A stretch of 64,000 nucleotides of DNA from the NCBI RefSeq assembly GCF_055900595.2, contig NZ_CM148325.1, one strand, 5' to 3'. Shown one piece after another: positions 14,845 to 50,818 of this stretch. The notes under the pieces were generated by a model. It was given only the letters and a program-made list of their open reading frames with translations, did no database searches and was not told the DNA's origin. The position numbers and the translations under genes are program-made. Each line of letters starts with the position of its first letter. Position 1 is the first letter of the stretch.

Positions 14845-17088
14845 ATGAAACTGAATGCAACTTATATAAAAATACGTGATAAATGGTGGGGGCTTCCGCT
14901 GTTCCTGCCTTCTTTCATCTTGCCCGTTTTCGCCCATATTAATACTTTCGCGCATATTTCTTCCGGTGAGGTTTTTCTCTTTTACCTGCCTTTGGCACTG
15001 ATGATCAGCATGATGATGTTTTTCAGCTGGGCGGCATTGCCAGGTATCGCTTTAGGGATTTTTGTTCGCAAATATGCAGAGCTGGGTATTTACGAAACGC
15101 TCTCATTAACAGCTAATTTTATTATCATTATCATTCTCTGTTGGGGCGGTTACAGGGTCTTTACTCCCCGGCGTAACAACGTTTCACATGGTGATACCCG
15201 TTTAATTGCCCAGCGTATATTCTGGCAGATTGTATTTCCTGCAACGCTGTTTCTAATACTTTTCCAATTTGCTGCGTTTGTTGGATTACTGGCGAGCAGA
15301 GAAAATCTGGTCGGCGTCATGCCCTTTAACCTCGGGACCTTAATCAATTATCAGGCCTTGCTGGTAGGTAATCTGATTGGTGTCCCGCTGTGCTATTTCA
15401 TCATTCGGGTGGTGCGAAATCCGTTTTATTTACGTAGCTATTATTCGCAATTAAAACAGCAGGTTGATGCCAAAGTTACCAAAAAAGAGTTCGCGCTCTG
15501 GCTACTGGCATTAGGTGCGTTGTTGCTGCTGTTGTGCATGCCGTTAAATGAAAAAAGCACAATTTTTAGCACCAATTATACCTTGTCATTATTGCTGCCC
15601 CTGATGATGTGGGGAGCGATGCGCTATGGTTATAAGCTGATTTCGCTGCTCTGGGCGGTCGTGCTGATGATCAGCATCCACAGCTATCAAAATTACATTC
15701 CCATTTATCCTGGCTATACCACGCAGCTGACCATAACCTCCTCCAGTTATCTGGTATTCTCTTTTATTGTCAATTATATGGCTGTACTGGCAACCCGTCA
15801 GCGAGCGGTAGTCAGACGCATTCAGCGGCTTGCGTATGTGGACCCGGTGGTTCATTTGCCAAATGTTCGCGCCCTGAATCGCGCGTTGCGTGATGCCCCC
15901 TGGTCTGCGCTTTGTTATTTACGCATCCCCGGCATGGAAATGCTGGTTAAGAACTATGGCATCATGCTACGGATTCAATACAAGCAAAAACTTTCTCACT
16001 GGCTGTCACCATTGCTGGAACCGGGTGAAGATGTTTATCAGCTTTCGGGTAACGATCTCGCGCTGCGACTGAATACAGAAGCGCACCAGGAGCGCATTAC
16101 CGCACTGGATAGCCATCTCAAGCAATTTCGTTTCTTTTGGGATGGAATGCCGATGCAACCGCAGATTGGCGTCAGTTACTGCTATGTGCGCTCGCCAGTG
16201 AATCATATCTACTTACTGCTGGGAGAGCTAAATACGGTCGCCGAACTTTCCATCGTGACCAACGCCCCGGAAAATATGCAGCGTCGCGGGGCAATGTATT
16301 TGCAACGCGAATTGAAAGATAAAGTCGCGATGATGAATCGGCTACAGCAGGCGCTGGAACACAACCATTTTTTCCTGATGGCCCAGCCGATTAACGGTAT
16401 GCGTGGTGATGTCTACCATGAGATCCTTCTGCGCATGAAAGGTGATAATGATGAACTGATCAGCCCCGACAGCTTCTTGCCGGTCGCGCACGAATTTGGT
16501 TTATCGTCGAGTATCGACATGTGGGTCATTGAGCATACGCTGCAATTTATGGCTGAAAACAGAGCGAAGATGCCCGCTCACCGTTTTGCGATTAATCTGT
16601 CGCCAACCTCGGTATGTCAGGCTCGTTTTCCCGTTGAAGTCAGTCAACTGCTGGCTAAATATCAAATTGAAGCGTGGCAACTTATTTTTGAAGTCACCGA
16701 AAGTAATGCTCTGACCAATGTTAAGCAGGCGCAAATCACCTTGCAGCATCTTCAGGAATTAGGCTGCCAGATTGCGATTGATGATTTCGGCACCGGCTAC
16801 GCCAGCTATGCGCGGCTTAAAAATGTGAATGCCGATCTCCTTAAAATTGACGGCAGTTTTATCCGCAATATTGTGTCAAATAGTCTGGATTACCAGATAG
16901 TGGCGTCGATTTGTCACCTGGCGCGAATGAAGAAAATGCTGGTAGTGGCAGAGTACGTTCAAAACGAAGAGATCCGCGAGGCGGTGCTTTCTTTAGGGAT
17001 AGATTATATGCAGGGTTATCTTATTGGTAAGCCGCAACCGTTAATTGATACGCTGAATGAAATCGAACCCATTCGCGAAAGTGCCTGA
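14845..17088 (+). CDS. pdeF: Cyclic-di-GMP phosphodiesterase PdeF (YfgF): membrane MASE1 domain, degenerate GGDEF, EAL
   Basis: 747 aa. N-terminal multi-TM region and C-terminal EAL-type region (DDFGTGYAS motif). Confidence 0.9.
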   Translation: MKLNATYIKIRDKWWGLPLFLPSFILPVFAHINTFAHISSGEVFLFYLPLALMISMMMFFSWAALPGIALGIFVRKYAELGIYETLSLTANFIIIIILCWGGYRVFTPRRNNVSHGDTRLIAQRIFWQIVFPATLFLILFQFAAFVGLLASRENLVGVMPFNLGTLINYQALLVGNLIGVPLCYFIIRVVRNPFYLRSYYSQLKQQVDAKVTKKEFALWLLALGALLLLLCMPLNEKSTIFSTNYTLSLLLPLMMWGAMRYGYKLISLLWAVVLMISIHSYQNYIPIYPGYTTQLTITSSSYLVFSFIVNYMAVLATRQRAVVRRIQRLAYVDPVVHLPNVRALNRALRDAPWSALCYLRIPGMEMLVKNYGIMLRIQYKQKLSHWLSPLLEPGEDVYQLSGNDLALRLNTEAHQERITALDSHLKQFRFFWDGMPMQPQIGVSYCYVRSPVNHIYLLLGELNTVAELSIVTNAPENMQRRGAMYLQRELKDKVAMMNRLQQALEHNHFFLMAQPINGMRGDVYHEILLRMKGDNDELISPDSFLPVAHEFGLSSSIDMWVIEHTLQFMAENRAKMPAHRFAINLSPTSVCQARFPVEVSQLLAKYQIEAWQLIFEVTESNALTNVKQAQITLQHLQELGCQIAIDDFGTGYASYARLKNVNADLLKIDGSFIRNIVSNSLDYQIVASICHLARMKKMLVVAEYVQNEEIREAVLSLGIDYMQGYLIGKPQPLIDTLNEIEPIRESA

Positions 17089-29837: not shown

Positions 29838-31853
29838 TTACAACACCTCGCGAACCGAGATCCCCAGCCGCTGCATTCGTGATAGCAGCGTGGTGCGCTT
29901 CATCCCTAATCGCGTCGCCGCGCCACGGGGCCCGGCAACAATGCCATTGGTTTCTCGCAATACCTGAACAATGCGCTGACGTTCTTCTTCGTCATTCTCT
30001 GGCGTCGTCGGGTGCAGTAACTGCGCCATTGAACTGCGAAGCGCCGAATTTTCATTTAACGTCGGCAGTAAACGGCTTTGGCGGACATTAAGATGTAAAT
30101 TCAGACTGTTACCGCGAGTCAGTAATACCGCTCGCTCAATCACGTTTTCCAGCTCGCGCACGTTGCCCGGCCAGTCCCACGACATCAACTGGCGTAGCGC
30201 TTCTGTTGGAATGGCATCAATTGTGCGATTCATATGGCGCGCCATTTTTTGTGTAAAATGTTTTGCTAAAAGAGGGATATCTTCCGGACGGTCGCGTAGC
30301 GGCGGCAATTCCAGTGGAAAGACGTTAAGTCGATAAAAGAGATCGCTGCGAAACTGGCGATCTTCTACCATTTGCCACAAATCACGGTTGGTGGCGGCAA
30401 TGACTCTGACATTCACCGGGATCGTTCTACTCCCACCGAGACGCTCAATTTCCCGCTCCTGTAATACGCGTAGCAGTTTGGGCTGAAGTTCTAACGGCAG
30501 ATCGCCAATTTCATCGAGAAATAACGTGCCGCCATCGGCAATTTCAAAACGACCACGATGAGTGTTAATCGCGCCAGTAAATGCCCCTTTGTCGTGACCG
30601 AATAACTCACTTTCCAGAAGACTGGCGGGGATAGCGGCGCAGTTGATTTTGACCAGCGGCTTGTCGCGTCGCGGGCTCAGTTGATGGATCGCCCTGGCGA
30701 TCACCTCTTTGCCGGTTCCGGTTTCACCACAAATCAACACCGTACTGTCGCTCTTCGCCACAATATCTACCTGCTGGAGTAAATCTTCCATTGCCTGGCT
30801 TTGGTAGATAATGTCACCGACGCCCAGATTCGAAAGGAGCTGCTCGCTAAGCTGGTGATTTTCTTGCTGTAAGCTTTCCTGCAAATCGGTCATGCTACGC
30901 CAGGCATCGGCATTGCCAACGGCAATAGCGATGCGATCGGCAATATGTTGTAGTAGCTGGCAGTTTTCCTCACTAAAGAGAGTGGGAGAGGTATGCGCCA
31001 GCAACAATGCACCCGGTGTATGGTTGCCAAAGGTGAGCGGTATAAGGAGCGCAGATTCGCAGCCGTTAGATGCAAGTAAGTGTAATAACGGGTCGCGTTG
31101 CCAGAGAAACAGATCGTCTGCACGGTGCGTCAAGGTCGGTTGTCGGGTTTGTAGCGTTTGTGTCAGCAATACACTTTCGCCAGGCATACAGCGTGGCAGA
31201 CACGCACAATGTGAGGCAGAAAGATCGCTGCACCACAGGCTGAACTTCTCGTTCTTTCGATGATCGCCCAGTACCATACTGACTGAAGCCAGACCGAAAA
31301 AATGATGGATCTCACGAGCGACGTCAGCGATCAGATCGTCGAGATCAAGATGTGACAACACTGCATTAGTGATATCCACCAGTACCCGATGATGATCGCG
31401 ATCTTTCTCCAGCAAACGCAGCGCCACCTGCTGTTCTTCATCATTGAGCCATGATTGCAGAACCGGAGTGATTATGTGTGCCAGCCAGTTAAACAGTGTG
31501 CAATCCAGGGGAGTAAAACGACTGCCGTGGGTGCGAATAAAGCGTAGCTCCGCCATTCCACTACTGCCGAGAAGGACGGCGTGGCGCGAATAATCGACCA
31601 TCTCGCCCTGATACTCTGTTGTTGCCGTCACATCGCTGCCATCATCATGGTAGCGGTAATAGAAGTTGCTTTTGAGAACATGCAGTTCAATAAGTTGTAC
31701 CGGGCTGAACGGCGGCGGCAGCGGGATGAAGGCGCGTAATAAAGACGCCTTGCCGTGTTTCTGCGCTAACCGCTCCGCGAGCATTCCGTTTACCGCTTCA
31801 ATTGTTATTCCTTGTGGCGGGGCAAACATCGCCTCGTCTGACATAGCCATCAA
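29838..31853 (-). CDS. hyfR: Sigma54-dependent transcriptional activator HyfR (FhlA-like)
   Basis: 671 aa. AAA+ sigma54-interaction motifs (GETGTGKE, GAFTGA) and C-terminal HTH. Confidence 0.95.
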   Translation of the reverse strand: MMAMSDEAMFAPPQGITIEAVNGMLAERLAQKHGKASLLRAFIPLPPPFSPVQLIELHVLKSNFYYRYHDDGSDVTATTEYQGEMVDYSRHAVLLGSSGMAELRFIRTHGSRFTPLDCTLFNWLAHIITPVLQSWLNDEEQQVALRLLEKDRDHHRVLVDITNAVLSHLDLDDLIADVAREIHHFFGLASVSMVLGDHRKNEKFSLWCSDLSASHCACLPRCMPGESVLLTQTLQTRQPTLTHRADDLFLWQRDPLLHLLASNGCESALLIPLTFGNHTPGALLLAHTSPTLFSEENCQLLQHIADRIAIAVGNADAWRSMTDLQESLQQENHQLSEQLLSNLGVGDIIYQSQAMEDLLQQVDIVAKSDSTVLICGETGTGKEVIARAIHQLSPRRDKPLVKINCAAIPASLLESELFGHDKGAFTGAINTHRGRFEIADGGTLFLDEIGDLPLELQPKLLRVLQEREIERLGGSRTIPVNVRVIAATNRDLWQMVEDRQFRSDLFYRLNVFPLELPPLRDRPEDIPLLAKHFTQKMARHMNRTIDAIPTEALRQLMSWDWPGNVRELENVIERAVLLTRGNSLNLHLNVRQSRLLPTLNENSALRSSMAQLLHPTTPENDEEERQRIVQVLRETNGIVAGPRGAATRLGMKRTTLLSRMQRLGISVREVL

Positions 31854-31879: not shown

Positions 31880-32293
31880 TCACGCAATTTTTCTGGCCAT
31901 CAGATAGATGGCCGGTTCCTGCACAATTTCATCCAACAGATGAATGAATTGAATGCTACGCGCCTGCCACACAGACGTCGCGTCATCTGCCAGTGGCGCG
32001 AATGCCCTGGTCAACAGGGCGGTGTGGCTGGCGTCAATAACAATCTCACCAAAGGTCATCACCCCCAGCATCTTACGTCGGGCTTGCTCCTCTTCGACCT
32101 GTGCAAGCCAATCTTCGTATTCCGTCTGTGGGCAGCGGAAGGCGACATTCAGACAATCAATCACGCCAACGTGATGACCGATAGCCAACGAGTAATACAT
32201 TACCTGGGAGCTGTGTTCCGGCATCTCGTCGCTACTGGCGATAAATTTTTTTCGCAGCGTCCAGAAAACAATTTCCCCGCACTCCTCAGCCAT
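31880..32293 (-). CDS. hyfJ: Hydrogenase-4 component J (HycH-like maturation protein)
   Basis: 137 aa; operon position. Confidence 0.85.
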
Positions 32294-33044
32294 GTAACCC
32301 CCGGAGAACGCGAAAGAGTTGCTGAACGATACTATTGAGACGCGGATCGTCGGCTTCGCGCAACCAGGTGTTAACCCGATTTCCTGTAGGATCGTCGCTT
32401 AAATGGCGCAGGAGCCGATCGCAAATTTCTCGCCCCTGACGATAGCCCGCCAGCCGCCTCGCTTCTCGCTCAATGGCGATACGCTGTGATGGCGGGATCT
32501 GCGGCCACAGCGGTTGCATGGTCACCCCGGTGGGATCGCGATAATCCACCGCGTGAATCTTCTGTTGTAGCAAACCGAGCGCCACGGCGAAACCGTGAAT
32601 GGTGGCGGCCGGTGTTGGCGGACAGCCGGGGATCCAAACATCAATGGGGACAATGGTGTCGCTGCCGCCCCAGACGCTGTAGAGATCGTGGAAAATACCG
32701 CCGCCGACACCGCACGCGCCGTAGGAAACACAGATTTTATGATCGGGGGCAGACTCATATGCCCGAAGTGCAGGCATACGCATCGCCCGGGTGACTGCGC
32801 CAGTAAATAACAAAATATCGGCGTGACGCGGTGATGAAACAACCTTAATGCCAAAACGTTCTGCGTCGAATACTGGTGTGATGGCGGCAAAAATTTCGAT
32901 TTCGCAGGCGTTGCAGCCGCCGCAATCGACGCGATAAACGTAGGCCGAGCGACGGATATCCTGTAACAAATGCTGCTTCATCTTTTGCGTTTGTTCGTCC
33001 AGCGTGATGGGCTGGCTGACATGTTGCGTAAGCACTGGACTCAT
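32286..33044 (-). CDS. hyfI: Hydrogenase-4 small subunit (NuoB-like)
   Basis: 252 aa with the NuoB-type Cys cluster ([10 protein letters not shown]...GCPP). Confidence 0.9.
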
Positions 33045-35311: not shown

Positions 35312-36881
35312 TGTGTTTCTCCGAAACAGATGCGGTGCCTGAAGGCAAAAAATCATGCCAGGTGCTACGTTGTGCAGGCAGGTCGTGCGTCCCTGAGAGG
35401 ACTATAGTGGAAGCGCCCGCCAGGATCCTGATGACAGGTTGTGGAATATGCGTTCCCATCGCCAGCATCATGACCAGCAGAATCACCATTGGCGAGGTGG
35501 TCAACCAGCCAAGTTCACCCCGGTTAACGGCCTGCGGCGGTTTCGCCATTAATACCCGCGCAGCCATCCGTACCAGGCCCGCCAGCACCAGCGTTAACAG
35601 CAATAACAGCAGGACGATAATCAACAGGTGATTACGAGCCAGTCCGGCGGTAACGGTCATAAATTCGCTAAGAAAAATGTTGAAGGGCGGCATCCCGGCC
35701 AGCGCCAGCGCACCGCCGCCAAACAGCACGGCGGTAAATGGCATGATTTTGAGCATTCCGCAGACGACGTTGAGATCGCGCGTGCCGTACTTGAGCAGTA
35801 CATTGCCGGAACCGCAGAACAGCAGCGTTTTTGCCAGACTGTGGTTTAAGGTGTGCAGCAGCGCAGCAAAAATTCCCAGCGGCCCGCCAATGCCTAGCGC
35901 CACCGCGACCAGTCCCATGTTCTCCACGCTGGAGTACGCCAGCAGACGCTTAATGTCCCGCTGTACCAGAATGAAAAATGCCGCCACGGCAACCGACAAC
36001 ATGCCGAAGATGAGCAACAACCGGTTGGGGAAATCGCTGCCGATGGCCTGGCAAATAATGATGTAATAGCGAATCAGCACCAACAGCGCGCAGTTCAGCA
36101 ATACGGCGGAGAGCAGGGCGCTGACCGGACTCGGCGCTTCACTGTGAGCATCCGGCAGCCAGGCGTGCATGGGAAATAGCCCGGTTTTGGTGCCAAAGCC
36201 AATTAGCACAAACACAAAGGCCAACAGCATTAATGTTGGGTCAAGCAAGGACGATTGCTTAAGAACCTCGCTCCAGAATATCGCCATTTCTGCCTGCGGC
36301 ATAACGCTGGCGGCGTTGGCGTATACCAGCACGGTACCGAACAGACCAAAAGCGACACCAACAGTACAAATAATGATGTACTTCCATGCAGCTTCCAGAG
36401 ATGAACGCTGACCGTAAATGCCTACCAGAAACGCCGAGCTTAAGGTGGTGGCTTCGATTGCCGCCCACATCACAATCAGGTTATTGCTGGTAACAACCAG
36501 CAGCATGGTGAACAAAAACAGATGGAAGAAACCGTAGTAATCGCACAGCGTAACGGGTGAAAGCTCGCCGTGAGCCACTTCATGACGCATGTAGCCAATC
36601 GAGTAAACACCGGTGAGAAAGCCAATCACACCAAGAATGGCGAGGAACAAACCGCCCAGACCATCAATATGAAGCCACAGTCCCGCAGCGAATATTTCTC
36701 CCGCATCAGCGGCAGTTTGGACCACCCACAGTGCCAGAATCAGCAGCAGTGTGATCCCTAAGCTATGTAGTACTGTCACCGTGCGAGTCGCAGAGTATCC
36801 CCGTTTCCGGCAGGCAAAACAGAGCAGCGAAAAAAGCAGCGGCGTGAGCAGGAGTAAAGCGAACATCACAGAATAACTCAT
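35301..36881 (-). CDS. hyfF: Hydrogenase-4 membrane subunit F (NuoN/L antiporter-like)
   Basis: 526 aa polytopic membrane protein. Confidence 0.9.
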
Positions 36882-37547: not shown

Positions 37548-38987
37548 TTACTGCAACCAGGTCGCGGCGAATACGCTGGAAATCAGCGACATCACAATTA
37601 GTACAATCAACACCAGGCGCATTGATCCTGGCAGCGGTGCGGCAGCGGCGACGGCTTCGCTCGGTTTGCCAGGCACGACGCGACCAAACCAGCGAATAAA
37701 CCAGGCGAAACTGGCGACCGATTCAATCATCAGCAGAATCATGGCGGGCAGCAGGATCCAGTACTCCACTGACAACGAAAAACCGGCAGCAAACAGTGGG
37801 AATTTACTGAAGAAGCCGTTGAACGGCGGCACGCCAGTAATCGCCAGCGCGGCCACGCAGAAACCCACGCCTGGCAACGGCAGGGTGTGCAATACGCCAC
37901 GCAGGCGCGGCAACAAGCGCGTGCCGCAGCTGTAACTCAGCGCACCTGCTACAAGGAAAAACAGGCTTTTAGCGAACGCGTGGTTGACGATGTAGGCGAT
38001 GCTGCCCTCCAGTGCCAGCCGCGAGCCGAAGATGGAGAGCGACAAGCCGAAGAACATCCAGCCAAGTTGAGTGATGGTCGACCAGGCCAGCAACCGCTTC
38101 ATATCCTGCTGCGGCAAATACATCAGGAAGCCGTAAAGAATGGTGACCAGTGCCATGACCATGCCAATGCCGCCAATCACATGCGGGATATTGCCGCCGT
38201 CGATAATGGCGCGGGCAAAAATGTAAACGCCCACTTTCACCATCGATGCGGCGTGGAGATAGGCGCTGATCGGTGTTGGCGCTTCCATTGCATCCGGTAG
38301 CCACGCTTGCATCGGTAGCTGGGCCGATTTTCCCCACGCGGCAAACAGGATGCCGCCATAAACCAGATAACGTGCGTCGCCGTGTAACTCGCTCATCGCG
38401 CTAAGCGCAAACGTTCCGGTCTGCAAAAACAGCGTGGCGGCGGCAAGATACAACCCCAGCGAACCGATATGAGTGATAAGTAACGCTTTTAGTGCTGAAC
38501 GTTGCGCTTTATCGCTCTGGTAATAACTGATCAACGCCCAGGAGCAGCCGCCCGTAATTTCAAAAAACAACAACTGACCGAGCAGCGTCGAGGAGAGTAC
38601 CAGTCCCGCCATCGCGCCGATAAAAACCAGCAAAAATGCGTAATAACGATTCGTGCCGTTATGCGGGTGTTCGCGATTTTTATCCGTCAGATAACCCGTG
38701 GAGTAGATCGTGACCAGCAAACCGAGGAACACCACCACAAACAGAATCAGCGTACTCACGCGATCAATGACCAGGCCAAACAACGCCACATCCCCCACGT
38801 TGACCAACGTCAACGTGACGGCAACTTTATCGGCCTGATAAAACGCGGAGATCAGCGACAACATGCACAGCGTGGTCAGCGCGGCGAACAAAATCCCCCA
38901 TTCGGCGGCCCGACGTTGTGGCGAAAACGAAACGACCAGTGCGCCGATAAAAGGCAGCAATAACGTCGTCAGAGCAAGATTTTCCAT
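37548..38987 (-). CDS. hyfD: Hydrogenase-4 membrane subunit D (antiporter-like)
   Basis: 479 aa polytopic membrane protein. Confidence 0.9.
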   Translation of the reverse strand: MENLALTTLLLPFIGALVVSFSPQRRAAEWGILFAALTTLCMLSLISAFYQADKVAVTLTLVNVGDVALFGLVIDRVSTLILFVVVFLGLLVTIYSTGYLTDKNREHPHNGTNRYYAFLLVFIGAMAGLVLSSTLLGQLLFFEITGGCSWALISYYQSDKAQRSALKALLITHIGSLGLYLAAATLFLQTGTFALSAMSELHGDARYLVYGGILFAAWGKSAQLPMQAWLPDAMEAPTPISAYLHAASMVKVGVYIFARAIIDGGNIPHVIGGIGMVMALVTILYGFLMYLPQQDMKRLLAWSTITQLGWMFFGLSLSIFGSRLALEGSIAYIVNHAFAKSLFFLVAGALSYSCGTRLLPRLRGVLHTLPLPGVGFCVAALAITGVPPFNGFFSKFPLFAAGFSLSVEYWILLPAMILLMIESVASFAWFIRWFGRVVPGKPSEAVAAAAPLPGSMRLVLIVLIVMSLISSVFAATWLQ

Positions 38988-39961: not shown

Positions 39962-41980
39962 TTAGACGGCAATAGCGATTAGCAGCACAACCAGTGCGGC
40001 GACCACATACAGGCAATAGAGACGAAAGTCGCCGCTTTGCAGATGCTGTATTTCTTTGGCCAGCCGTTGGGTGGCGCTCACGATGGGGCGGATCACCCGC
40101 TCATCCCAAAAGGGTTCTGTGCTCTGAGCCCTGGCGGTGATGTGCGCGAGACCTTTGTTCAGCCTCAGCGTAGGGTCGAGCTGTTGTCGTAGACGAAATA
40201 GCGCAGAAAAGACCACACGCAGCGGCTGCATCACGCCATTGCCTGACGGGGCCATCGCATTTTCCCAGCCGTAGCCGCATGCCCAGGCATCTCCTGTGCG
40301 ACGAAACGCTGCGCGGCGCGAACGACACCACAGCCAGTAAAGGCCAGGCAGCAAAGGCATCGCCAGTAGTAACAGCAACAGTAATGAGGGAGTGACCCGT
40401 GTATGAAACGTGCCGGGTACAAGTGCCATTCCGCTGGCGACAGTGACGGAAGGGGTATTGGTAAACGCATGGGCAATGTGCATTATCTTCGGTGCCAGCC
40501 AACTGGCACTAAGCGCAATGAATACGCAGAGTGCCGCGAGCAGTAGCATGGCGACGATCATCGTATTTGGCACTTCCTGTGCCTCTTCAGCGTGTGTACT
40601 GCGCGGCGCACCACAGAAAGTAATGCCGTACATTTTGACGAAGCACATTACTGCCAGCCCACCAGTGACTGCCAGCATCACCATAGCAATAGGACCCGCA
40701 AGTTGTAGCGCTACGGCTTCCACACGACTTAGTGAGAACAGCGACTGCCAGGTGTACCATTCGCTGATAAAACCATTCAGCGGAGGAATGGCTGATATCG
40801 CGAGGCAACCAATCAGGCATGCTGCGGCTGTCCACGGCATCCGTTTTGCCAGTGCCCCCATTTTTTCCATGTCGTGGGTATGCAAACGCGAAATAATCGC
40901 ACCCGCGCCGAGAAATAGCAGCCCTTTGAACAGCGCATGGTTGAGCAGATGAAACAGTGCGCCGAGCAGTCCAACCACGGTGAGCAGCGGGTCGTGCAGT
41001 GACAGACCGACCATGGACACACCGACCGCCAGCAAAATAATGCCGACGTTTTCGACGGTACTCCAGGCCAGCAGCCGTTTGATATCCTGTTCCGCCAGCG
41101 CATACAGCACGCCCAGGAGCGCGGAGATTGCGCCGATCGCCATCACCAGAATGCCCCACCACAGCGGCAAACCCGTTTGCGCCAGCAGATCCATCGCCAC
41201 TTTCAGGATGCCGAAAATACCGATTTTGACCATTACGCCAGACATCAACGCCGAAGCGTGCGATGGTGCGGCAGGATGAGCGCGCGGCAACCAGCTGTGC
41301 AACGGCATCATCCCGGCTTTCGCGCCAAAACCGAAGAAGGCCAGCAGGAACACCGCCGACGCCAGCCCCGGAGAAAGTGAAAGCGTGCGGAAACTGGCAA
41401 AATCGAGGTTGCCGCTTTCGCGCCACATCAGCAAGAAGGCAATCATAATCAGCACCGATCCGGCGTGGGCGATAAAAAAGTAGAGCATGCCAGCGTTGAT
41501 TGACGTTTTATCCTGCCTGGCAATGACCAGAAACCAGGAAGACAGCGACATCATTTCAAACAACACGATGAACCAAAAAGCGTTGTCCATCACCAGCAGG
41601 GCAACCATCGATGCGATGAAAAGATTCATAAAGAAGCCCATCGCCGCCGCGCCTTTGCCCTCGTATTCGCGCATATAAGTCAATGAATAGAGCGAACAAA
41701 CCACCACCAGCAAGGAGATAACCAGCACCATAAATGCCGAGAGGCTATCCATTCGCAGGGTTAAATCGGCAAAGTCAAAAGGCGTGGCAAAACGGGCGAC
41801 TAAAGTTACGCCTGCATGTAATTGCGTAATTCCGCTGATGATGCCAATCGCGCCGCCCACCAGCGATGTGATGCCGGAAAGCTTAATAGCCAGTCTGTCC
41901 AGACCGAGTAAAAACAGCGAAGCCAGACTGGCAAACAGATAGAGGATCAGCGACCAGGTTAATAATTGCAGGGCATCCAT
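39962..41980 (-). CDS. hyfB: Hydrogenase-4 membrane subunit B (NuoL-like)
   Basis: 672 aa polytopic membrane protein. Confidence 0.9.
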   Translation of the reverse strand: MDALQLLTWSLILYLFASLASLFLLGLDRLAIKLSGITSLVGGAIGIISGITQLHAGVTLVARFATPFDFADLTLRMDSLSAFMVLVISLLVVVCSLYSLTYMREYEGKGAAAMGFFMNLFIASMVALLVMDNAFWFIVLFEMMSLSSWFLVIARQDKTSINAGMLYFFIAHAGSVLIMIAFLLMWRESGNLDFASFRTLSLSPGLASAVFLLAFFGFGAKAGMMPLHSWLPRAHPAAPSHASALMSGVMVKIGIFGILKVAMDLLAQTGLPLWWGILVMAIGAISALLGVLYALAEQDIKRLLAWSTVENVGIILLAVGVSMVGLSLHDPLLTVVGLLGALFHLLNHALFKGLLFLGAGAIISRLHTHDMEKMGALAKRMPWTAAACLIGCLAISAIPPLNGFISEWYTWQSLFSLSRVEAVALQLAGPIAMVMLAVTGGLAVMCFVKMYGITFCGAPRSTHAEEAQEVPNTMIVAMLLLAALCVFIALSASWLAPKIMHIAHAFTNTPSVTVASGMALVPGTFHTRVTPSLLLLLLLAMPLLPGLYWLWCRSRRAAFRRTGDAWACGYGWENAMAPSGNGVMQPLRVVFSALFRLRQQLDPTLRLNKGLAHITARAQSTEPFWDERVIRPIVSATQRLAKEIQHLQSGDFRLYCLYVVAALVVLLIAIAV

Positions 41981-42597
41981 TAGCGTTGCTCCTGAGTGAG
42001 GGAAAGGGGATCCTCCCCGCCATTGGCAAACCAGCTTGCGGCAAGGCGCTGTTTTTCTTTCATCTGACGTTGCAGGCTATCGTCGGTGATCAGCCGTAAC
42101 GCATGATTCGGGCAAGCGCGAACGCAGGCCGGACCTTCTGGCAAGAAATCACACAGGTCGCATTTCACCGCGACGCTCTGGACACCCGGTTCCCAGCGCA
42201 GCAAAGCATGTTGGGTCGGCGCGTTTTCTTCGCCGTCTTTGAGTGAGCCGTCAGCCTGAAAAACATATTGCGCAGGGGCATTCACCGGACGGCTTCCTGA
42301 AGCGCTGATTGCGCCAAATGGGCAGACCACGGCGCAAAGCTTGCAGCCAATACAGAGGCTTTCGTTGAGTTGGATCGCATCATCTCTCTGGGAGATGGCA
42401 TTGACCGGGCAGACCTGCAGGCAAGGGGCTTCCTCACAGTGATGACACACGACAGGGGCAGTGAGTGTTGACGTCTTCGCCAGGGCCAGGCGCGGGTGTT
42501 GCTGTAAACCTTGCGTTTTATGCACGTCCGAACAGGCAGCGAGACAGGTATTACATCCTGTACACCACAGTGGTTCGGCCACCACAAAGCGGTTCAT
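41980..42597 (-). CDS. hyfA: Hydrogenase-4 ferredoxin-type subunit A (4x[4Fe-4S])
   Basis: 205 aa from ATG at 42597 (MNRFVVAEPLWCTGCNTC...); the start was chosen downstream of the putative sigma54 promoter. Confidence 0.9.
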   Translation of the reverse strand: MNRFVVAEPLWCTGCNTCLAACSDVHKTQGLQQHPRLALAKTSTLTAPVVCHHCEEAPCLQVCPVNAISQRDDAIQLNESLCIGCKLCAVVCPFGAISASGSRPVNAPAQYVFQADGSLKDGEENAPTQHALLRWEPGVQSVAVKCDLCDFLPEGPACVRACPNHALRLITDDSLQRQMKEKQRLAASWFANGGEDPLSLTQEQR

Positions 42598-42635
42598 GTC
42601 GGCTCCTTGAAAATGATATGAAACATTGCATTTCA

Positions 42636-42655
42636 TTTTGCATAAAGGATGCCAG
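42636..42655 (-). promoter_or_regulatory. Putative sigma54 (-24/-12) promoter of the hyf operon
   Basis: Reverse strand reads CTGGCATCCTTTATGCAAAA (GG-N10-GC), about 40 nt upstream of the hyfA ATG; hyfR is a sigma54 activator. Confidence 0.6.
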
Positions 42656-42849
42656 TCTGATTAATTTAATATATTCAATAAGTTATGTGTTAACTGGGTT
42701 CTGAACGGTACAAAAATGATGGTCATTAACGTTCAGCAATAAATGGATTCGACACCCGTGTCGCAGGGGAAAGCGAGAATGTGATCTTGATCACGAGAAG
42801 TGAGGTGTGCTGGCCGCAAGCGCAGCCAGCACTGAATGGAGCAAAGTAA

Positions 42850-43320
42850 TCAGGCGTGTTCTTTCAGCCAGTTCAGCACAACGTCGTGGTGATTGCTGGT
42901 TTTGAAATCGTCAAAGACATGTTCGATTTTGCCATCAGCGTCAATCAGGAAGCTGATGCGATGAATACCATCGTAGGTTTTGCCCATGAAGGACTTTTCA
43001 CCCCAGACGCCGAATTGTTCGCACACCTGGTGGTCCTCATCAGACAGGAGCGTAAAGTTAAGCAGCTCTTTTTCCGCAAAACGGGAGAGTTTTTCGGGTT
43101 TATCGGTGCTGATACCCAGCACATCAACGCCCGCTTTTTTCAATTCATCCATGTTATCGCGTAAGCCGCAGGCCTGTACGGTACAGCCGGGAGTCATGGC
43201 TTTTGGGTAAAAATAAACCAGAACACGCTGTCCCTGGAAGTCGGTCAAATTAACTTGTTCTCCGTCTTGATCCGGCAAGCTAAATTTCGGTGCGATATCA
43301 CCGGCTTTCAGTGGATTCAT
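42850..43320 (-). CDS. bcp: Thiol peroxidase Bcp (peroxiredoxin Q family)
   Basis: 156 aa with the peroxiredoxin active-site motif TPGCT. Confidence 0.95.
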   Translation of the reverse strand: MNPLKAGDIAPKFSLPDQDGEQVNLTDFQGQRVLVYFYPKAMTPGCTVQACGLRDNMDELKKAGVDVLGISTDKPEKLSRFAEKELLNFTLLSDEDHQVCEQFGVWGEKSFMGKTYDGIHRISFLIDADGKIEHVFDDFKTSNHHDVVLNWLKEHA

Positions 43321-50732: not shown

Positions 50733-50818
50733 CCTGGTAGGCCTGATAAGACGCGTGAGCGTCGCATCAGGCATCGTTCACCATTGCCGGATGCGGCATT
50801 AACGCCTTATCCGGCCAC
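50733..50818. repeat. REP/BIME cluster
   Basis: Inverted REP units (gcctgataagacgcgtgagcgtcgcatcaggc ... gccggatgcggcattaacgccttatccggcc). Confidence 0.7.

Follow-up and report, generated by a model that had tools for sequence, protein, structure and literature searches.

The window analysed here, a stretch of 64,000 nucleotides, is E. coli DNA, and the site under study belongs to the bcp-hyfA spacer, which is 252 nt long, with bcp on the same strand. The promoter in this spacer heads a complete hyfABCDEFGHIJ-hyfR-focB operon on the reverse strand, which specifies hydrogenase 4. The first gene, hyfA (41980-42597, reverse strand), encodes a 4Fe-4S ferredoxin-type hydrogenase 4 subunit of 205 amino acids plus a stop codon, as assigned from RefSeq, the Pfam Fer4 families and an MNRFV N-terminus. 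A Shine-Dalgarno sequence, AAGGAG (42603-42608, reverse strand), was read from the strand 5 nt before the hyfA ATG at 42597-42595. The longest open reading frame at this position (41980-42636) is larger, with 218 amino acids counted from an ATG at 42636-42634, and thereby carries an N-terminal extension of 13 codons, MKCNVSYHFQGAD (42598-42636, reverse strand). The same operon contains hyfR (29838-31850, reverse strand), a sigma-54 enhancer-binding activator recognised by its GAF domain (PF01590), its AAA+ sigma-54 interaction domain (PF00158, E = 4.8e-75) and a GAFTGA motif.

A query of 501 nt (42400-42900) matched E. coli strain Z0117EC0005 at 100% identity and most other E. coli at 95-99%. 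Over about 26 kb, strain Z0117EC0005 and the window differ by 4 substitutions and one indel, the latter in hyfJ. This gene (31880-32293, reverse strand) is an intact ORF of 137 amino acids in the window and is given by RefSeq as a frameshifted pseudogene in Z0117EC0005 (16143-16555 of the compared sequence). The hyfA promoter of K-12 MG1655 (hyfAp) has the same bcp-hyfA spacer, core, distance to the hyfA ATG, Shine-Dalgarno sequence and operon content as the window, and the 16-nt core TGGCATCCTTTATGCA is identical in the two. Within the promoter stretch the window has C for A at 42655 and A for T at 42637 relative to K-12, and seven more substitutions are found elsewhere in the spacer. The C at 42655 presumably brings the window nearer to the consensus YTGGCAC than the A of K-12 does.

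On the reverse strand, positions 42655 to 42636 read CTGGCATCCTTTATGCAAAA, and a pattern search of the window located TGGCATCCTTTATGCA as an exact 16-nt match at 42639-42654 on that strand. The GG of the -24 element is found at 42653-42652 and the GC of the -12 element at 42641-42640, separated by the 10 nt (CATCCTTTAT) that are expected of a sigma-54 promoter. An earlier note on this DNA had reported such a GG-N10-GC motif on the reverse strand about 40 nt 5' of the ATG at 42597, and both its sequence and its coordinates were correct. The core of the hyf operon's sigma-54 (-24/-12) promoter, CTGGCATCCTTTATGCA, was accordingly delimited at 42639-42655 (reverse strand) from the motif, a weight matrix, identity to K-12 and conservation. 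It can be parsed as TGGCAT-CCTTT-ATGCA and departs from the consensus in having T for C at -21, in missing the G at -20 and in having ATGCA in place of TTGCA. Its -12 C sits 43 nt from the hyfA ATG, which allows for a short leader, and the motif is intergenic and oriented towards hyfA, as a sigma-54 promoter of this gene should be.

The bare pattern TGGCAY-N6-TGCW was matched once in the 64-kb window where 1.24 matches were expected, which is not significant. With an RpoN weight matrix of 186 promoters, as printed in PMC7658346, the hyf core scored 12.2 of 21.1 bits and ranked 8 among the approximately 128,000 positions of the window, seven of which outscore it, and by itself the motif is a moderate match to the consensus. 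Once its spacer context is counted the motif is significant, though the bare pattern is not. When the 252-nt bcp-hyfA spacer was shuffled, 0.3% of the shuffles held a sense-strand match this good, and 0.09% held one located 30-80 nt from the start codon; the hyf core is the only match of such quality in the spacer, and it is on the sense strand. Bare-pattern statistics were dropped as a basis, being non-significant, and context-aware shuffles and comparative evidence were used instead. A promoter scan detected no sigma-70-like promoter between 42300 and 43000.

Five of the eight top-ranking matrix matches in the window are positioned inside hyf genes in the sense orientation (38151-38166, 35821-35836, 32569-32584, 31411-31426 and 30013-30028, all on the reverse strand). 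These sigma-54-like matches were considered as internal promoters; no site in hyfB, hyfC, hyfD, hyfF, hyfI or hyfR appears in the main-text high-stringency ChIP-seq tables. Intragenic TGGC...TTGC matches probably reflect the Leu-Ala-rich codons of the membrane subunits.

Andrews et al. 1997 and Skibinski et al. 2002 are said to have given the first descriptions of the hyfA promoter. In the latter work (J Bacteriol 184:6642), primer extension reportedly placed the transcription start 30 bases upstream of hyfA, and transcription reportedly depended on sigma-54 and on HyfR/FhlA. Several other papers credit Skibinski et al. 2002 for the FhlA/HyfR/RpoN dependence of hyf, and PMC7658346, citing Skibinski 2002 and Self 2004, describes the transcription of hyf as dependent on FhlA and RpoN. 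The K-12 site is OS23, a ChIP-seq peak for sigma-54 in Bonocora et al. 2015 (PMC4591121 Table 1), with the motif ATGGCATCCTTTATGCA, a FAT (fold-above-threshold) of 16 and a predicted start 31 bp upstream of hyfA; the flag 'C' given to OS23 in that paper denotes experimental confirmation in EcoCyc. In gSELEX, the peak in the bcp/hyfA spacer stood at 92% for the RpoN holoenzyme by itself and, once NtrC was added, was the highest of all at 100% (PMC8743547, Shimada et al. 2021). These binding data were obtained in K-12, the core of which is identical and from which the present strain differs in flanking bases. Control of hyf by sigma-54, HyfR and FhlA has thus been in the literature since 1997-2002 and was later confirmed genome-wide by ChIP-seq and gSELEX. 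The dependence on HyfR and sigma-54 that the earlier note had proposed is supported by the ChIP-seq and gSELEX peaks at an identical core and by a HyfR with a sigma-54-interaction domain encoded in the operon itself. We therefore estimate a probability of about 95% that the flagged sequence is the known sigma-54 promoter of the hyf operon in E. coli, making a 205-aa HyfA from a start near 42628. There is nothing new in this: promoter, sigma-54 dependence and activators were already established, as was a HyfA of 205 amino acids.

The transcription start was predicted by placing it 19 bp downstream of the motif centre, a rule that yields 31 bp to hyfA in PMC4591121 Table 1. Counted from the position of the -12 element, +1 would be at about 42628 (42627-42629, reverse strand), the exact nucleotide being a prediction from sequence. 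This is 31 nt 5' of the hyfA ATG and 8 nt 3' of the A that begins the upstream ATG. The predicted 5' UTR of 31 nt is unstructured on RNA folding (-1.4 kcal/mol). In the proposed mechanism, sigma-54 RNA polymerase would bind the GG (42653-42652) and the GC (42641-42640) in a closed complex that an enhancer-binding ATPase would convert to the open complex. The activator would be the operon-encoded HyfR, and the literature names FhlA with formate as a further one. The activator is presumed to bind the palindromes conserved some 80-135 bp upstream, probably assisted by bending of the AT-rich spacer DNA. Transcription from near 42628 would then give a 31-nt leader containing AAGGAG, and translation at the ATG at 42597 would give the 205-aa HyfA.

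An imperfect palindrome of 30 bp (42610-42639, with 14-nt arms that are 86% complementary) is centred on the predicted start and was considered as a regulatory hairpin or operator. It was rejected as a demonstrated element because it is specific to E. coli, folds as RNA no better than shuffles (z = -0.04) and has its 5' arm upstream of the start.

The earlier note had located the motif inside the N-terminal extension of the 218-aa ORF. This needs correction, as the -24/-12 elements (42653-42640) fall 4-17 nt upstream of the ATG of the extension (42636); they are within the stop-to-stop frame, the stop of which is at 42663-42661. It is the predicted start, and not the -24/-12 elements, that falls within the 13 codons. 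Since this start is downstream of the upstream ATG, the sigma-54 transcript cannot encode the 218-aa form, and the argument of the earlier note for the shorter protein is consequently stronger than was stated.

Annotation and homology agree with the 205-aa HyfA that the earlier note had preferred to the 218-aa form. RefSeq gives hyfA 205 amino acids and a start equivalent to 42597 in K-12 MG1655, in Z0117EC0005 and in every compared strain shown with a full hyfA. The 218-aa translation had 847 homologues; among the best 120 of these the query coverage was at most 94%, which equals 205/218, and the extension was covered by none. The MNRFV N-terminus, which aligns with residue 14 of the long ORF, was present in 18/18 aligned HyfA relatives, from E. 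coli to Aeromonas and the Pasteurellaceae. A strand read showed a perfect Shine-Dalgarno sequence before 42597 and none before 42636, and 5 aligned taxa have the block GGAGCCGA-ATG in conserved form. In E. coli no stop interrupts the frame between 42660 and 42598, and the in-frame upstream ATG was found in all 8 aligned E. coli sequences and, among the ten sequences compared, in E. coli only. In-frame stops take its place in E. fergusonii (-12), Hafnia (-18), Aeromonas (-6) and Trabulsiella (-42), and the stop at -12 excludes the extension in E. fergusonii. The 205-aa form thus has a ribosome-binding site and a conserved N-terminus, and neither was found for the 218-aa extension. The extension (42598-42636), which comes from the ORF list, is non-coding, promoter-proximal DNA and 5' UTR, as judged from the lack of homologue coverage, the indels and stops in relatives and the missing Shine-Dalgarno sequence. 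The 218-aa ORF is an artefact of picking the first start codon after a stop, because its ATG is outside the predicted transcript and without a ribosome-binding site and because the extension is unconserved; HyfA has 205 amino acids. In terms of annotation, the mechanical ORF of 218 amino acids should be cut back to a HyfA of 205, as reference annotations already have it.

Both proteins could in principle be made if the main sigma-54 transcript gave the 205-aa HyfA and a rare read-through mRNA from bcp allowed initiation at the ATG at 42636, resulting in a minor extended isoform peculiar to E. coli. Read-through is a relevant consideration here in view of the strong GC-rich hairpin just after the bcp stop codon (42807-42832, reverse strand; -22.9 kcal/mol, z = -5.1), which is not a canonical terminator: it was not called by a terminator scan and no U tract follows it. 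The hairpin is probably the 3' end of bcp or a terminator-like element that limits read-through into hyf. The presence of the in-frame ATG in 8/8 aligned E. coli sequences would also suit such an isoform, but low divergence within E. coli, together with the place of this ATG at -9 to -7 of the promoter, explains why it has been kept. With an ATG that has no ribosome-binding site and is not conserved outside E. coli, we regard a minor isoform as very improbable.

The known sigma-54 promoter with a 205-aa product also finds its counterparts in other taxa. The hyfA loci of the window, K-12, E. fergusonii, Citrobacter amalonaticus, Kosakonia, Trabulsiella, Hafnia, Dickeya, Proteus and Aeromonas (ten sequences, nine taxa) were compared by scanning 400 nt upstream of each hyfA with the RpoN matrix. 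In 10/10 sequences the sense-strand match that scored best was a TGGC...TGC motif whose -12 C is 42-64 nt away from the start codon, and in 8/10 this distance was 42-46 nt, as conservation of an orthologous promoter would have it. The position of the motif is held although the upstream genes differ outside Escherichia, Citrobacter and Kosakonia. In these three genera, where the bcp-hyfA spacer is syntenic and could be aligned, the TGGCA and TGC columns are invariant, and the region from the -12 element to the Shine-Dalgarno sequence is variable with single-base indels. Published conservation scores agree for Yokenella, Pectobacterium, Dickeya, Brenneria and Proteus.

These comparisons bear on the possibility that the motif arose by chance, that hyf is transcribed from a sigma-70 promoter or by read-through from gcvR-bcp, and that the mRNA includes the ATG at 42636 so that a 218-aa HyfA is made. 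The bare pattern at chance frequency in the window, the seven positions that outscore the core, bcp on the same strand with a hairpin that lacks a U tract, and the E. coli frame that stays open between 42660 and 42598 could all be cited in its favour. It is nevertheless scarcely credible, given that sigma-54 is bound here in K-12 in vivo and in vitro (PMC4591121, PMC8743547), that the motif keeps its position across ten sequences (nine taxa) whose upstream genes are unrelated, that no sigma-70-like promoter was found in the spacer, that the Shine-Dalgarno sequence is absent before 42636 and perfect before 42597, and that the extension is missing in all aligned relatives, with E. fergusonii having an in-frame stop at -12.

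As a sigma-54 promoter, that of hyf has close parallels in the promoters that precede hyf (formate hydrogenlyase-2) in Pectobacterium, Dickeya, Proteus, Trabulsiella and Hafnia, in which a sigma-54 motif is found 42-64 nt upstream of a hyfA starting with MNRFV. In comparison with the window these promoters match the consensus better (14.5-18 bits versus 12.2) and have other upstream genes (hyp genes, pirin, NUDIX), on account of which their spacers cannot be aligned with that of E. coli. The hyf of Proteus mirabilis was RpoN- and FhlA-dependent in a reporter assay (PMC7658346). The FhlA-dependent promoters of the formate regulon (hycA, hypA, fdhF and hydN) have the -24/-12 architecture in common with hyf, and like hyf they have a short leader (20-41 nt, PMC4591121 Table 1), an enhancer-binding activator with a GAF domain and TGTCG/CGACA half-sites in their upstream regions. 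However, the hyf core is weaker, with a PSSM score of 10.5 as compared with 12.4 for hycA and 14.1 for hypA (PMC4591121), the upstream blocks of hyf fit the published FhlA matrix poorly, and the hyf operon carries its own activator gene, hyfR.

Four blocks in the spacer (42673-42795) are conserved across Escherichia, Citrobacter and Kosakonia and are likely to be enhancer and accessory sites, to judge from the alignment. A conserved palindrome, CGACACGGGTGTCGAA (42748-42763, reverse strand), identified by an inverted-repeat search and by alignment at roughly -120 to -135 relative to the predicted start, is a candidate HyfR/FhlA enhancer (UAS). The CGACAC-N3-TGyCGA within it is conserved in 4 genera, and it has GTGTCGA/CGACA half-sites in common with the FhlA-bound hyc-hyp region of K-12. 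A second conserved block found by alignment, TGAACGTTAATGACCATCATTTTTGT (42710-42735, reverse strand; about -82 to -107), is possibly a part of the enhancer, and TGACCATCAyTTTTGT within 42735-42710 is invariant or nearly so in 5 sequences. CGACACGGGTGTCGAA and TGACCATCATTTTTGT, within 42700-42800, may together make up the enhancer. Between enhancer and promoter the alignment revealed an AT-rich element, YAA-N4-TTGAA (42673-42685, reverse strand), of which TTGAA is invariant. We take this element to resemble the IHF core, read as WATCAA-N4-TTR on the other strand with one mismatch. The fourth block is a CRP-like palindrome, CGTGATCAAGATCACA (42780-42795, reverse strand; consensus TGTGA-N6-TCACA), which was also detected by the inverted-repeat search and alignment and to which a function may be ascribed by resemblance; TGTGA-N6-TCACA is perfect in E. 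fergusonii and Citrobacter amalonaticus. IHF or CRP may accordingly have a role at hyf. The best match to the published FhlA matrix in the spacer was the CRP-like palindrome (10.2 bits), and the CGACAC palindrome CGACACGGGTGTCGAA matched it weakly (4.7 bits only), so the assignment of the enhancer stays inferential.

The promoter region (42580-42700) was found in 4297/5426 complete E. coli genomes and the bcp side, within the 42400-42900 query, in 5424, leaving 1129/5426 in which the hyfA promoter and 5' region are absent. Touchon et al. 2009 (PMC2617782) already tabulate hyfABCDEFGHIJ with the genes whose presence varies between E. coli strains. Among the complete E. coli genomes, 152 carry a mutated -24 GG. 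The allele TGACAT (GG to GA) accounts for 139 of these, an EDL933-type sub-lineage of O157:H7 with EDL933, ATCC 35150, ATCC 43890 and OK1 among its members, and TAGCAT (GG to AG), in another clade, for 13 further genomes; the loci compared for the alleles included those of O157:H7 OK1 and APEC20/16. TGGCAT is kept in O55:H7 TB182A and in O157:H7 strain 4276, and the GA change is therefore derived within O157:H7. On the RpoN matrix the score drops from 12.2 bits to 2.7 for TGACAT and to 5.9 for TAGCAT. Among the 186 promoters of that matrix, G occupies the first -24 G position in 184 and the second in all 186 (PMC7658346). A different lesion was seen in strain Res13-Lact-PEB14-36, where a 14-bp tandem duplication, CATCCTTTATGCAA, is located inside the promoter at the equivalent of about 42638-42651 in the window. 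It leaves one intact copy of TGGCAT-N5-ATGCA, 14 nt farther from hyfA. In the searchable literature we found no reports of -24 GG lesions or of a promoter duplication at this site.

In the literature, hyf of K-12 is described as poorly expressed or 'silent', from which it follows that the promoter is rarely active, and the lesions fit this description. A tentative reading, to which we would give slightly less than even odds, is that the hyf promoter is decaying in natural E. coli populations. If the lesions abolish sigma-54 binding, hyf would be transcriptionally dead in a major EHEC lineage. This would support the view that E. coli can dispense with hydrogenase 4, a 'silent' system on which selection is relaxed. 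The catalogue of lesions (GG to GA, GG to AG and the 14-bp duplication) may provide natural experiments on whether expression of hydrogenase 4 matters.

Elsewhere in the window, the sole Rfam match above its gathering score was naRNA4 (RF02564, nucleoid-associated noncoding RNA 4) at 50740-50816 on the reverse strand, with 89 bits.
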